Shown here: positions 8,141 to 36,098 of the stretch, in pieces
How positions within the stretch are numbered: the first letter of the stretch is position 1
Layout: the number at the start of each line of letters is the position of its first letter
Origin: Enterobacteria phage Kha5h
Sequence record: NC_054905.1
DNA: 64,000 nucleotides
Strand: one strand, 5' to 3'
Translations under genes and position numbers: made by a program
Notes under the pieces: model-generated
Seen by the model: only the letters and a program-made list of their open reading frames with translations
The model's database searches: none
Told to the model about the DNA's origin: nothing

Positions 8141-8377
8141 TTAACCACCTATTTCTGTAGGCGTAAACATTGCAGCATTCTTAGTTTTCCAGTCAGCTGC
8201 ATCAGAAACTACAGTAGAATATGCCGCCTTTTCAGAAGGAAAGGTCTGATAATAAGAATCTGCAATACGATGCTCGTTAGAATAGATTTCAAATGGAACA
8301 GAAACTTCCATACCTTTAACTTCTTTGCCTTCACCTGCTGGATGAGTAAAGGTCTTGATGTTAACGAAACCACCCAT
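8141..8377 (-). CDS. soc: small outer capsid protein Soc
   Basis: 78 aa; VNIKTF and YQTFPSEKAAYSTV match Soc; late promoter TATAAATA upstream; hairpin downstream. Confidence 0.75.
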   Translation of the reverse strand: MGGFVNIKTFTHPAGEGKEVKGMEVSVPFEIYSNEHRIADSYYQTFPSEKAAYSTVVSDAADWKTKNAAMFTPTEIGG

Positions 8378-8408: not shown

Positions 8409-8416
8409 TATTTATA
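8409..8416 (-). promoter_or_regulatory. late promoter TATAAATA for soc
   Basis: Exact TATAAATA on minus strand ~30 nt upstream of soc ATG. Confidence 0.6.
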
Positions 8417-9263
8417 AACCATTTTCAAACCTCTTTATCATATTTATATAGTTTTCATCGGGATAACCTAGACTAACTGCTAACTTTCTAAAATTGACAT
8501 ATTTAGGTTTGTTGTTATTAATCCATAATTCTCTAAGCTCTTTTTCATAATTCCATTTAAGTTGATTTCTGCGTGCAGTTTTGCTTAAAGTTTTTCCTTT
8601 AGCTTTTAAAGCTTTTTCGGATGATTGTTTTAATTTTTGAATATTTAAAACTTCTTCTATAGATAAATTATTTTCCTTTGAATACCTTATGCAAAAATCT
8701 TTTACTACGGCTATTAGGCAATTTTTGTGAGTACCTAAAATTTCTGGGTTATTTTCTTCAACTAAAATTCCCCAATATCTTCGGTAGCGAGGCATATCCC
8801 TTGAAATCCAGTCATTATACCAAAAATCAAAGTTGGAATACATGAAAGATTTTCTTTTGCGAAGAGTATCTTGGTTTATCCATTGCTCACGTTTATCAGC
8901 CCATAACTTAATAGTAAAGTCTTTCTCTAAGTCAGAAAGCTTCTTAAATTGCGAGCTATTTACTGAGGTCATTCTCTGGAATGCATTCAGCAATCCAAAT
9001 CTTCCAGTTGAACATAAGAGATAGTGAACATATATGTGTTGATATATTGGGAGATATACTCTATTCCAAGGATATATTTTAAAATCACTATACTCAGGAA
9101 ATGCGCATTTAGGAAGTATATGATGGGCTTCTGTTTTAGATTTAATGTGAGTGTTTAACTTATACTTATCTATAATTTTTAAGTACTCATCTAAAAGTTC
9201 CCATTGCGGGAACTTTTCTTTAAGAGCAGATTTGAAATTAATATCCATTATCTTGACGTTCAA
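8412..9263 (-). CDS. HNH-family homing endonuclease (free-standing)
   Basis: AHHILPK ... WNRV ... QHIYVH (H-N-H); basic C-terminal tail; 5' end overlaps 3' end of gene 56. Confidence 0.6.
   Translation of the reverse strand: MNVKIMDINFKSALKEKFPQWELLDEYLKIIDKYKLNTHIKSKTEAHHILPKCAFPEYSDFKIYPWNRVYLPIYQHIYVHYLLCSTGRFGLLNAFQRMTSVNSSQFKKLSDLEKDFTIKLWADKREQWINQDTLRKRKSFMYSNFDFWYNDWISRDMPRYRRYWGILVEENNPEILGTHKNCLIAVVKDFCIRYSKENNLSIEEVLNIQKLKQSSEKALKAKGKTLSKTARRNQLKWNYEKELRELWINNNKPKYVNFRKLAVSLGYPDENYINMIKRFENGL
8441..8448 (-). promoter_or_regulatory. second late-promoter-like TATAAATA
   Basis: Exact octamer inside the 3' end of the HNH gene. Confidence 0.35.
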
Positions 9264-9756
9264 AATTATGTTTGTTCTTCAGATAATAAAGTTTAAAGAT
9301 TTCTTCAGCCGTAAGACCGAGACCTTGGAACATGTTCAGAACGAAATGAAGAATATCAATCATTTCGAATTTAATTTCCAACTGGTCTTGTGGAGACAAA
9401 TCAGTAATTAAAGTTTCACGACGTTCACCATGTTGAGCTTTCCAAGGCTTCCATACAGCAGATGCATCTTTTTCGCCATTGCTCATACCACCAAGAGAAG
9501 TCAATAGTTCGCGGAATTCATCATCAATATAATCTTTCTGATTACGCAGCCAATCAACAACTTCACCCGCAGTAGCCAAATCATCAGGATGACGGTTATA
9601 TTCAGGTTTATCTTTAGCTAAACGAACCTGAAGAGATTTCTGCATATCAAGCATAACTTGCAGCGGGTCTTTTTCATCACCGAGAATATCCCAGTATTCA
9701 TTTTGAGCTTTATCAGCGCCTTCAATCAGTTGACTACATTCGTTGAAATGTGGCAT
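9238..9756 (-). CDS. 56: dCTPase/dUTPase gp56
   Basis: 172 aa; recognised as T4 gp56; MotA-box middle promoter upstream. Confidence 0.85.
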   Translation of the reverse strand: MPHFNECSQLIEGADKAQNEYWDILGDEKDPLQVMLDMQKSLQVRLAKDKPEYNRHPDDLATAGEVVDWLRNQKDYIDDEFRELLTSLGGMSNGEKDASAVWKPWKAQHGERRETLITDLSPQDQLEIKFEMIDILHFVLNMFQGLGLTAEEIFKLYYLKNKHNFERQDNGY

Positions 9757-9792
9757 GTTATTTTTCCTTTCAATTCATGGGTTAGTAGATTA

Positions 9793-9816
9793 ATTATACA
9801 ATAAATATATAAAGCA
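9793..9816 (-). promoter_or_regulatory. middle promoter (MotA box TGCTTTA + TATAAT) for gene 56
   Basis: MotA-box-like sequence 11 nt from -10 on minus strand. Confidence 0.5.
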
Positions 9817-9829
9817 ATAAGGAGGACAT

Positions 9830-10030
9830 ATGGTACAAAAATTAATGGCACTTGTTAATGCCATAAAAGGTAATAAAAAGCGTATAGCTTTTACTATTTC
9901 TGCTATGGTAGGAATTTTACTCTGGAACTTTATTCTATCACCTGTTGCAATTGCGCATGGTATTAATATTCCAGTAGTTACTCTTGATACATTTGTAGAT
10001 TTAGCATTTGCTTTAGTTGGGTTGATTTAA
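9830..10030 (+). CDS. small hydrophobic protein (66 aa), plus strand
   Basis: Strong SD AAGGAGG 4 nt before ATG; predicted TM segments; stop overlaps gene 61 stop (TTAA). Confidence 0.45.
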   Translation: MVQKLMALVNAIKGNKKRIAFTISAMVGILLWNFILSPVAIAHGINIPVVTLDTFVDLAFALVGLI

Positions 10031-33155: not shown

Positions 33156-33176
33156 AAGGCCCAGAGGGCCCGCCTT
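33156..33176 (-). terminator. hairpin after nrdH
   Basis: GGCCC-AGA-GGGCC core. Confidence 0.5.
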
Positions 33177-33483
33177 AGTCTTCTATGATATCTCTATCAT
33201 ATCCAAGTGAAATGAGAGTTTCTTTGAAGTGTTTAATGTTCTTTTGTCTAGAATCATTAATGAAAATGACTGGATAACGAATGTTAAGAGATGTGAATCC
33301 AGCGCGTTTAGCAAGAGATACAATCAGCGGACGATCATACTCAATCTTACCATTATTTGTAAGAACTTTATAGAAAGTAAAAGGAGCATTGAGCTCCTTT
33401 AGAAGTTTTGTAACTGATTGACATCCAGGACAACGACCTACTTCATCTGGAATTCCATAGACTTCAATCTTGTTTTGTTTCAC
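33175..33483 (-). CDS. nrdH: glutaredoxin-like NrdH
   Basis: 102 aa; CPGC redox motif. Confidence 0.8.
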   Translation of the reverse strand: MKQNKIEVYGIPDEVGRCPGCQSVTKLLKELNAPFTFYKVLTNNGKIEYDRPLIVSLAKRAGFTSLNIRYPVIFINDSRQKNIKHFKETLISLGYDRDIIED

Positions 33484-33813: not shown

Positions 33814-34284
33814 TTAATCATGTGTCCACACCCCATCGGTATTTGACCAAAGTCGCTGATTATCTGATCCTCGCCACAGCTTTTTGGTCGGAAGATTTTT
33901 CTCATACTTCCCATCAATAATAACATCAACATATTTAAGCATTTCTAGTTGTTTAATATCTTCAAATTTATATCCTGTCCACAACCAAATGCTTTTATTG
34001 GGATAAAGATTTTTTACTGTTTGAACAATGCAATGAATAACATCTCGGTTATCAGGATAGAGAGGGTCACCTCCAGTTATAGTCAATCCTTCTATATAAT
34101 CATTATTCAAACATTCAATTAATTGCTCTAGTGTTTCACCAGTGAATGGAATACCATTTCTAGCATTCCATGTTGATTTATTATAACACCCTTCACATTT
34201 ATGCAAACAACCTGTAACGAAAAGAACGACTCTGCAACCAGGGCCATTCACAAAATCGCAAGGATAAAATCTATCATAATTCAT
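33814..34284 (-). CDS. nrdG: anaerobic ribonucleotide reductase activase NrdG
   Basis: 156 aa; radical-SAM cysteine cluster CLHKCEGC. Confidence 0.9.
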   Translation of the reverse strand: MNYDRFYPCDFVNGPGCRVVLFVTGCLHKCEGCYNKSTWNARNGIPFTGETLEQLIECLNNDYIEGLTITGGDPLYPDNRDVIHCIVQTVKNLYPNKSIWLWTGYKFEDIKQLEMLKYVDVIIDGKYEKNLPTKKLWRGSDNQRLWSNTDGVWTHD

Positions 34285-36098
34285 TGGTGTTTAACCCTAT
34301 GCATGATTTCTTTATTTTTACCGAGATTAAATCCGCGTTCGTTCGGATTTCCCAAATAACCACATGTTCTTCTTATGGTATTCATCTTTTTAGGATCAGT
34401 TTCTCCACAAACTGAACAAACAAATCCGTTTTCAGTAGGAGTCATTTCATGGGTACTTCCACATGTAAAACACTTATCTACTGGCATATTAACACCAAAA
34501 TAATCTAAATGCTGCGCAGCATAATCCCATACAGCCTCAAGTCCTTTTAGGTTGTTTTTCATATCTGGAAGTTCAACATAAGAAATGTGACCACCCGTCG
34601 CAATGAAATGATACGGTGCTTCACGAGAAATCTTTTCAAACGGAGTGATATTTTCTTCTACTGAAACGTGGAAACTATTAGTGTACCAGCCTTTATCGGT
34701 AACATCTTTTACGCTTCCATATTTTTCTGTGTCGAGTTTACAGAAACGATAACACAAGTTTTCAGCAGGAGTAGAATATAAACTAAAAGCAAATCCAGTT
34801 CTTTCGGACCACTGTTTAAGATGAGCATTCATTTTAGTTAAAATTTCTTGTCCAATATCACGACCAACAAGAATATTCAATTCATGAATACCGATGTATC
34901 CTAAAGACACTGAACTTCTGCCGTTTTTAAATAACTCAATTATATCGTCATCAGGTTTAAGACGAACCCCGAATGCACCTTCTTGGTATAGAATAGGAGC
35001 AACAGTCGCTTTAACTCCTTTTAAGGAACTAATTCTACACATCAAAGCTTCAAAACACAAATCCATTCGTTCATTGAACAATTCGATAAATTTCTGTTCA
35101 TTGAACTGCGTTCCAATATAAGAATCTAATGCGATGCGAGGAAGATTCAATGTTACAACACCAAGATTATTACGTCCATCAAGAATTTCATTACCAGTCG
35201 AATCTTTCCATACGCTCAAGAAACTACGGCATCCCATCGGAGAAACAGGAATAGATGAACCAGTGATAGCTTTATTATTCTTAGCTGAAATAATATCAGG
35301 ATACATCCTTTTGCTTGCGCACTCTAGAGCAAGTTGCTTAATGTCGTAATTCGGATCGTCTTTATAAAGATTAACGCCTTCTTCAACGAACATAACAAGC
35401 TTAGGGAAAATAGGAGTTATCCCATCACGACCGAGACCTTTAATACGATTTTTCAGAATTGCTTTCTGAATCATTCGTTCAGTCCAGTCAGTTCCTGTAC
35501 CAAATGTAATTGTTACAAAAGGTGTTTGTCCGTTTGAACTAAAGAGAGTATTTACTTCATATTCATAAGCTTGGAATGCATCGTATACATCTTTTTCTGT
35601 TTTAGACTGGGCATAATTCAACGCATCAGCGATTTGCCATTTTTCTGCATCCTCAATATGTTTTGCATAGGTGCGTTTAACATAAGGAGAAAGTACTTTA
35701 TCTACATTAGCAAAAGTCGTTCCGCCATATTGGTGAGAAGCAACCTGTGCAGTAATTTGTGCCATAATTGCAGTAGCAACGCCAATTGATTTAGGAGTTT
35801 CAATCTGCGCATTACCTAGCTTAAATCCATTTTCAAGCATTCCTTTTAAATCTACTAAACAACAATTAGTAAATGGAAGAGCAGGGGAATAATCAATATC
35901 GTGGAAATGAATAATTCCGCTTTCATGCGCTTTCATAATAAAAGACGGGACCATATTTTTGGCAATGTGTTTAGACACAATACCAGCCATAAGGTCCCGT
36001 TGAGTTGGAAAAACACGAGAATCTTTATTAGCATTCTCGTTTAAAAGGTCTTTATTAGTTTTATGAATCAATCCTTCAATTTCTTTTTCAATTGTCAT
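34281..36098 (-). CDS. nrdD: anaerobic ribonucleoside-triphosphate reductase NrdD
   Basis: 605 aa uninterrupted; C-terminal glycyl-radical and CxxC zinc motifs. Confidence 0.95.
   Translation of the reverse strand: MTIEKEIEGLIHKTNKDLLNENANKDSRVFPTQRDLMAGIVSKHIAKNMVPSFIMKAHESGIIHFHDIDYSPALPFTNCCLVDLKGMLENGFKLGNAQIETPKSIGVATAIMAQITAQVASHQYGGTTFANVDKVLSPYVKRTYAKHIEDAEKWQIADALNYAQSKTEKDVYDAFQAYEYEVNTLFSSNGQTPFVTITFGTGTDWTERMIQKAILKNRIKGLGRDGITPIFPKLVMFVEEGVNLYKDDPNYDIKQLALECASKRMYPDIISAKNNKAITGSSIPVSPMGCRSFLSVWKDSTGNEILDGRNNLGVVTLNLPRIALDSYIGTQFNEQKFIELFNERMDLCFEALMCRISSLKGVKATVAPILYQEGAFGVRLKPDDDIIELFKNGRSSVSLGYIGIHELNILVGRDIGQEILTKMNAHLKQWSERTGFAFSLYSTPAENLCYRFCKLDTEKYGSVKDVTDKGWYTNSFHVSVEENITPFEKISREAPYHFIATGGHISYVELPDMKNNLKGLEAVWDYAAQHLDYFGVNMPVDKCFTCGSTHEMTPTENGFVCSVCGETDPKKMNTIRRTCGYLGNPNERGFNLGKNKEIMHRVKHQ

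Follow-up and report, generated by a model that had tools for sequence, protein, structure and literature searches.

The endonuclease gene and its signals at the 56/soc junction

The stretch of DNA analysed here (hereafter the window) comprises 64,000 nucleotides of Enterobacteria phage Kha5h (NC_054905.1). It is a section of a T4-like phage genome, matched best (about 98%) by Yersinia phages fPS-2 and PYPS2T and by Escherichia phage Pu-Krd-SF5. On the minus strand of the window the gene order runs from gene 56 through an open reading frame for a putative homing endonuclease to soc. The genes and signals of the locus are as follows:

9793..9818, minus strand: middle-promoter-like site upstream of gene 56 (MotA-box-like ATTGCTTTA, 11 nt, TATAAT; matched by eye only)
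9238..9756, minus strand: gene 56 (dCTPase), upstream of the endonuclease gene (Pfam dUTPase_2, PHROG 173)
9238..9279, minus strand: gene 56 tail (KNKHNFERQDNGY plus stop), which travels with the endonuclease cassette; no difference from T4 in the 35 nt compared
9238..9248, minus strand: overlap ATGGATATTAA of the endonuclease start and the gene 56 end, 11 nt
8412..9248, minus strand: putative Mob-type HNH homing endonuclease gene, 278 aa, ATG at 9248, TAA at 8412-8414
9193..9217, minus strand: terminator-like stem-loop AAAAGTTCCC-GCAAT-GGGAACTTTT, 10-bp stem, 31 nt past the AUG; a counterpart of the internal terminators in mobE and segF
8441..8448, minus strand: second TATAAATA motif, within the ORF, not conserved among alleles
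8409..8416, minus strand: late promoter TATAAATA of soc, containing the endonuclease TAA stop; right border of the cassette, conserved in all relatives
8141..8377, minus strand: soc (small outer capsid protein), RB69-like allele, downstream (Pfam Soc, 9e-19)

The endonuclease had been described as an ORF of 283 aa at 8412-9263, and such a frame is present when it is read at its longest, from a TTG at 9263 on the minus strand. All annotated relatives, however, start the endonuclease at the ATG at 9248, which gives a protein of 278 aa with the N-terminus MDINFK, and 278 aa is the better gene model. The overlap that had been noted between the 5' end of the frame and the last codons of gene 56 exists with either start, spanning 11 nt when counted from the ATG and 26 nt when counted from the TTG. 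The GC content of the endonuclease gene is 30%, as against 38% for gene 56, and the product of the downstream soc allele is only 46% identical to T4 Soc. When the endonuclease ORF was compared with seven other alleles, dN/dS was 0.06-0.11 (about 0.07) at dS values of up to 0.87. Because dN/dS lies in this range, we take the ORF to be real and, as judged from codon changes, under strong purifying selection, encoding a protein that is not decaying.

The stem-loop near the start of the gene has a folding energy of -13.3 kcal/mol (z -3.4), to be set beside -13.1 for the segF hairpin and -16.7 kcal/mol for the mobE hairpin. It is found in all HNH-bearing alleles, with the stem unchanged in each. 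In phage ACG-C40 (L050, about 2700-2725) the loop is reverse-complemented from GCAAT to ATTGC, with the stem intact and QW in the protein replaced by LR. Because this flip of the loop changes two amino acids and keeps the structure, it points to selection on the hairpin itself. The fPS-2 annotation calls the hairpin a terminator. Our local terminator scan of the window did not call it, and its U tract consists of only 4 U, partly inside the stem. In the endonuclease-free phage PhiZZ6, no such hairpin occurs between 56 and soc. Another candidate structure, in which TTTATTATCT and AGATAATGGA would pair to sequester the start codon, was rejected, as the pairing is lost in alleles L031 and L037 (by eye).

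The endonuclease gene is promoterless. The fPS-2 record annotates a 'predicted middle promoter' upstream of its gene g030c, in the intergenic region corresponding to that of the middle-promoter-like site in the window. By analogy with known phage endonuclease genes, gene 56 probably supplies transcription to the endonuclease gene, and probably coupled translation as well. Experiments have documented the same regulatory layout for mobE (PMC2790892). For segF it is described in a review (PMC2988022), which also gives the 11-bp overlap of segF with gene 56.

At the other end of the gene, two TATAAATA motifs had been placed in the 3' end of the ORF. Both copies are present, but the first straddles the stop codon and the second is unconserved. 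Because the second copy reads TATAAACA in fPS-2, SmallBear, KM16 and DK-13, it is probably a fortuitous by-product of the codons for Y-I-N, and we rejected it as a functional late promoter. The count of TATAAATA in the 64-kb window is 7, against 10.7 expected by chance on both strands, and so does not exceed chance. All 7 exact copies lie on the minus strand, which is the transcribed strand.

The nuclease domain, the C-terminal module and the Mob family

The following parts of the protein were delimited:

8934..9206, minus strand: N-terminal nuclease domain, aa 15-105
9006-9134, minus strand: beta-beta-alpha core, aa 39-81
9123-9125, 9120-9122, 9063-9065, 9036-9038 and 9024-9026, minus strand: codons of the invariant residues H42, H43, N62, H71 and H75, respectively; P46 is also invariant
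8415..8573, minus strand: presumed DNA-binding helical module at the C-terminus, aa 226-278, common to other Mob and Seg endonucleases

The HNH assignment had originally been read from the strings AHHILPK, WNRV and QHIYVH. These strings are present in the protein, and they contain the residues (H42, H43, P46, N62, H71 and H75) that are invariant in an alignment of 55 homologue N-terminal domains. Alignment with HNH and mob-type endonucleases, the check that had been proposed for the assignment, therefore finds the catalytic residues aligned and unvarying. A confident AlphaFold2 model of the N-terminal domain, built from the 55-sequence alignment (pLDDT 91.8), has beta-beta-alpha topology, with a strand at 39-43 (EAHHI), a strand at 63-67 and a helix at 68-81. 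In this model H42 and H43 lie in the first strand, with the His-His pair at its end as in the HNH superfamily, N62 directly precedes the second strand, and H71 and H75 fall in the helix; the superfamily has a conserved Asn in strand 2 and a His (or Asn) in the helix that follows. The His-His pair of HNH nucleases provides the general base and a metal ligand, and the N-x8-H-x3-H spacing of our protein is that of the colicin E9 DNase.

At the level of families, the protein matches PHROG 655 ('homing endonuclease', 5e-33) and phrog_12434 ('HNH endonuclease', 5e-10), and relatives' records annotate the gene as an HNH or homing endonuclease. A tblastn search returned 242 distant relatives in phage records; the matches listed are in T4-like phages, with labels such as mobC, mobE or Mob-like. 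An exhaustive HMMER search found 713 representative homologue clusters; such an exhaustive search of representatives was needed, as a word-indexed protein search gave just 3-6 relatives. Neither Pfam nor NCBIfam contains a model that matches the endonuclease protein, and the Pfam HNH models matched none of the 92 homologues in alignment A2. This silence of Pfam and NCBIfam shows a gap in the models, not a failure of the motif; the PHROG families labelled HNH and homing endonuclease do match.

No relative of the nuclease domain was found by sequence search of the PDB, including a search with the N-domain profile, and a Foldseek comparison of the N-domain model with the PDB gave nothing significant. 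In BFVD, by contrast with the PDB, the model had fold matches among MobD-like, MobE and Mob-like proteins, T4 MobC and 'HNHc domain' proteins. Among the T4 paralogues MobD is closest in sequence (25% over 259 aa, E 2.7e-9, C-terminal region included), followed by MobB (8e-4) and MobE (3e-3). The N-terminal domain has no similarity to that of SegF, with its GIY-YIG motif.

The C-terminal ~50 residues are a module that occurs on HNH and GIY-YIG endonucleases alike. This module is 47-52% identical to the C-termini of other endonucleases, namely the GIY-YIG proteins P0016 and P0026 and fPS-2 g030c, and it aligns with the C-terminus of T4 MobD and weakly with that of SegF (E 0.069). A full-length AlphaFold2 model, made from a 6-sequence alignment, was poor (pLDDT 49.6) and was excluded from the fold search; within it the C-terminal module was predicted as three helices, with pLDDT 73-87.

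From these motif and model comparisons we conclude that the protein is a predicted Mob-type free-standing HNH homing endonuclease, for which the proof at the level of fold is modest. Like other Mob-type genes, the gene stands free between conserved genes, in the same orientation as they are, and is patchy in close relatives. It resembles MobD and MobE in having an HH...N...H...H motif in the N-terminal domain followed by a variable, presumed DNA-binding C-terminal region. It resembles mobE further in being a promoterless cassette that overlaps or abuts the upstream gene, has a stem-loop about 30 nt past the AUG and contains, at its 3' end, the promoter of the downstream gene. In contrast to MobD and MobE, the protein has HH and N separated by a longer insert (PKCAFPEYSDFKIYPW versus PRCMGGxDDxx), is only about 25% identical to MobD, and is encoded at the 56/soc locus by a gene that is absent from T4. 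For MobE itself, cutting in vitro could not be shown (PMC2790892).

Weak Mob-like matches elsewhere in the window, at 33.4 and 34.3 kb, fall in an ORF at 33175-33483 and at the start of the nrdG ORF, and we rejected them as further mob genes. The second match is spurious, the nrdG-like N-terminus MNYDRFY resembling a Mob N-terminus, MNYDRIY. By homology to T4, the nrdG ORF (33814-34284) and the nrdD ORF (34281-36098) overlap by 4 nt, and the phage of the window therefore lacks mobC, which T4 has between nrdG and nrdD.

Patchy distribution and apparent spread of the cassette

Of about 784 phage records that share its flanks, 29 (about 22 isolates) contain the endonuclease cassette, in a single copy each and always between 56 and soc. 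An HNH gene at the 56/soc junction is borne out, and the slot is the one that the GIY-YIG gene segF has in T4, as the original prediction had said. An identical insert in all relatives, which would have spoken against the prediction, is not what we see, the cassette being absent from most close relatives. The carriers include members of Tequatrovirus, Moonvirus (KM16) and Gaprivervirus (DK-13). Other contents of the junction are exemplified by PhiZZ6, SfPhi01, T2, T4 and Mosigvirus: segF was found in 50 records, the T2-type junction was matched in 352, and the Mosigvirus-type junction in at least 66 at >=95% identity.

Two comparisons bear on how the cassette came to be where it is. Citrobacter phage PhiZZ6 has 0 differences from the window over 9300-9699, in the gene 56 body, yet lacks the endonuclease gene and has two small ORFs in its place. 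Conversely, the cassette is 97-99.6% identical across phages in which the flanking genes share only 67-76% identity. For Klebsiella phage SmallBear, identity to the window is 97.2% in the endonuclease gene but 75.6% in the gene 56 body, 69% in gene 61 and 67% in soc; for PhiZZ23, it is 98.9% in the endonuclease gene and 71% in the gene 56 body. Because the cassette is near-identical while its flanks are strongly diverged, these comparisons indicate that it has apparently spread horizontally in recent times. Taken together, distribution, cassette-versus-flank identity, dN/dS and GC are, at the level of sequence, what is standard for a homing endonuclease gene that is active and spreads laterally.

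We consider it likely, then, that the ORF belongs to the T4 Mob (HNH) family of free-standing homing endonuclease genes and that it spreads by gene conversion in mixed infections. By analogy with MobE and SegF, the gene would be transcribed on the gene 56 message; ribosomes re-initiating at the stop of gene 56 would translate it at a low level, and the internal hairpin, as a weak terminator, might damp expression further. When a relative without the gene (that is, with a T2/PhiZZ6-type junction) co-infects, its DNA would be nicked or cut near the 56/soc junction, and repair from the endonuclease-bearing genome would bring in the gene along with the final ~40 nt of gene 56, if the MobE and SegF precedents hold.

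An alternative is that the gene is a fixed, immobile relic, kept since its deletion would remove the soc late promoter and the hairpin, and that its protein no longer cuts. A dN/dS of 0.06-0.11 over the whole ORF, with all motif residues invariant, is hard to reconcile with this idea, as retention of the promoter would constrain the last few codons only; the near-identity of the cassette across phages with very diverged flanks likewise favours recent transfer. The idea does draw on the fact that the soc promoter overlaps the endonuclease stop codon, an overlap by which a clean deletion of the gene is disfavoured. It also draws on one allele (L031, of phage vB_EcoM_005) with a 5-nt frameshift insertion and a rearrangement just past the hairpin, and on the many T4 mob genes that are without demonstrated activity (Table 1, PMC2988022). 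On this evidence we regard a relic as improbable.

A further alternative accepts an active nuclease and gives it a main role other than its own homing, as a weapon or exclusion factor, or as an enzyme recruited to recombination, to replication or to the evasion of host defence; spread of the gene would then be a side effect. Strong purifying selection would fit any useful function, and there are precedents for such roles: marker exclusion by SegF at the 56/soc locus is documented, and SegB is reported in a 2026 paper (PMC13096335) to help evade a host defence. The T4 annotation also places oriA within gene 56. No sequence feature separates the gene from one engaged in ordinary homing, however, and its sporadic distribution at a single locus with sharp cassette borders is the classic homing pattern, so that we hold a different main role to be very unlikely and prefer ordinary homing.

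The junction as a whole is variable. We observed at least eight alternative contents between 56 and soc. The junction may be empty, or may hold segF, the HNH gene, or up to three small ORFs, which are of several unrelated kinds (examples are L019 3522-4087, L060 (T2) 497-897 and L002 1418-1788). In endonuclease-free alleles, the first small ORF begins at a TAATG that overlaps the gene 56 stop. Escherichia phage vB_EcoM_005 (MK295203; L031 2400-3520) has a tandem partial duplication of the gene 56/HNH region, in which a shortened and diverged gene 56 precedes the first ~18 HNH codons; these are joined just past the hairpin to codon ~47 of a second gene 56 copy, after which comes the HNH gene. 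The 5-nt frameshift insertion lies in the second HNH copy, likewise just past the hairpin. Either the hairpin-adjacent site is prone to rearrangement or the assembly is faulty.

A second variable slot lies between gene 56 and the primase gene 61, with the following contents:

Window: 9757-10030, with one 66-aa ORF at 9830-10030, plus strand
fPS-2 and PYPS2T: an extra Mob-type HNH gene (fPS-2 g030c, L004 2759-3409), its C-terminal module 47% identical to that of the protein studied here
T4 and ACG-C40: dam (T4 dam, L005 3347-4126)
DK-13: another homing endonuclease gene, adjoining the primase gene (L053 3296-4045)

A start codon and gene 56 tail shared with segF

The left border of the cassette lies inside gene 56, never more than ~70 nt from the stop codon of that gene. 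The alleles compared have in common a strongly conserved block of 29 nt, GAAGAAATCTTTAAACTTTATTAYCTGAA, which apart from Y is unchanged in four sequences set side by side. On its 3' side, the last 13 codons of gene 56 differ between HNH-bearing and endonuclease-free alleles. HNH-bearing phages end gene 56 with KNKHNFERQDNGY, a peptide that every HNH allele keeps, whereas T2, PhiZZ6 and most endonuclease-free phages end it with KNAENFARQDRGY; between the window and the T2/PhiZZ6 type, 14 nt and 4 aa differ. Because the window equals PhiZZ6 through the gene 56 body and the left border is always within about 70 nt of the stop, a target near the gene 56 tail appears plausible, if appreciably less than probable.

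T4 has the same arrangement around segF. The segF gene and the HNH gene share one ATG (ATGGATATTAA) in the last codons of gene 56, with an identical 11-nt overlap; both proteins begin MDI, and the TAA that ends each gene falls within the late promoter of soc. T4 and the window have exactly the same nucleotides over the final 68 nt of gene 56, while the rest of the gene is about 76% identical. The likeness to T4 SegF thus takes in the slot, the orientation, the start codon, the overlap, the gene 56 tail, the stop in the soc late promoter, an internal 5' hairpin (-13.1 kcal/mol in segF, -13.3 in the HNH gene) and a weakly similar C-terminal module. The catalytic domains, in contrast, are unrelated, being GIY-YIG in SegF and HNH in our protein. 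Because the HNH gene and segF share both a start codon and a gene 56 tail, one endonuclease cassette has probably replaced the other by recombination within the shared tail, at a landing pad that was adapted beforehand, as far as can be judged from these alignments.

It had been suggested that this locus reflects independent endonuclease invasions at a recombination hotspot. That an unrelated endonuclease sits in the segF slot agrees with the suggestion; the common ATG, the 68-nt identical tail and the TAA stops in the soc promoter do not, and on these comparisons 'independent invasions' appears too strong a description. A full form of the idea would have the HNH gene and segF as two wholly independent insertions that converged on the only usable ATG. 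The unrelated nuclease domains fit this reading, as do the distant segF alleles L037 and L041, which keep the ATGGNTATTAA start and have different tails of their own, and the native Mosigvirus tail already contains GATAATGG, so that the ATG would be available to any incomer. Convergence on a start codon does not, however, explain 100% identity of T4 and the window over 68 nt, synonymous sites included, against ~76% elsewhere in gene 56. This identity indicates that the tail is shared by descent through recombination and not by convergence, and we find two fully independent insertions doubtful.

The origin of the tail may lie outside the endonuclease-bearing phages. In Mosigvirus phages such as MM02, gene 56 ends with a native tail, KNQHNFERQDNGY, there is no insert, and gene 56 directly abuts soc; of the records with this type of junction, the tail itself was read in MM02, L009 and L017 only. 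In L009, L017 and L068 (MM02 and relatives), gene 56 and the soc promoter are 41-45 nt apart. Because nearly the same tail is native to insert-free Mosigvirus, the tail is not specific to endonuclease-bearing genomes, and it therefore offers no proof of a target or immunity site. The idea that the tail is an endonuclease-specific immunity allele is weakened by these near-identical tails at empty junctions. The KNQHNFERQDNGY tail may instead be the source of a co-converted flank, or a naturally resistant allele, and the endonuclease-type tail may be flanking DNA of Mosigvirus-like origin that was co-converted with the cassette.

A degenerate-pattern scan of IMG/VR for the tail yielded no new 56/soc loci, its three matches being unrelated contigs with a similar C-terminal peptide. 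These contigs (L062, L063 and L065; 45-71 kb) encode proteins ending NFERQD.GY*, like the gp56 C-terminus, and had no other match to the 56/soc-locus genes tested. This suggests that the tail peptide could be an old variant in the wider pyrophosphohydrolase family.

We put forward, tentatively, that 56/soc is a contested landing pad, at which SegF and HNH genes displace each other behind a shared start and a Mosigvirus-like tail. The tail would be the immunity determinant, segF-bearing T4 and the HNH phages would be cross-immune, and T2-type phages would be sensitive to both; the T4 segF allele would derive from an HNH-bearing ancestor, or the reverse. Experiments have shown that SegF targets gene 56 of T2 and causes marker exclusion (PMC2988022). 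The sharing of one slot by endonuclease families in T4 relatives is an already known phenomenon (PMC2988022). That review cites Sandegren et al. 2005 for SegH and Hef in place of mobC and mobE in T4 relatives. The likeness to our case is that endonuclease genes of different families occupy one intergenic slot and target the same neighbouring gene; the locus given there differs from 56/soc.

In GenBank records the gene is already labelled by homology as an HNH or homing endonuclease. Only two of its features go beyond the routine: the start and tail that it has in common with segF, and the conserved hairpin, of which an inverted-loop variant occurs. For annotation, the analysis means that current Pfam and NCBIfam HNH models miss a whole Mob-like subfamily (713 representative clusters). 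For the biology of these phages, it adds a Mob-family member at the T4 locus that, through SegF and gene 56, gave the first explanation of endonuclease-driven marker exclusion. It also offers a natural isogenic test pair, PhiZZ23 with the gene and PhiZZ6 without it, from the same isolation host, Citrobacter rodentium DBS100. With two catalytically unrelated endonucleases behind one start codon and flank, the locus is a compact system for competition and replacement among homing endonucleases, and the same system bears on how far homing endonucleases carry flanking host sequence between phage genera.
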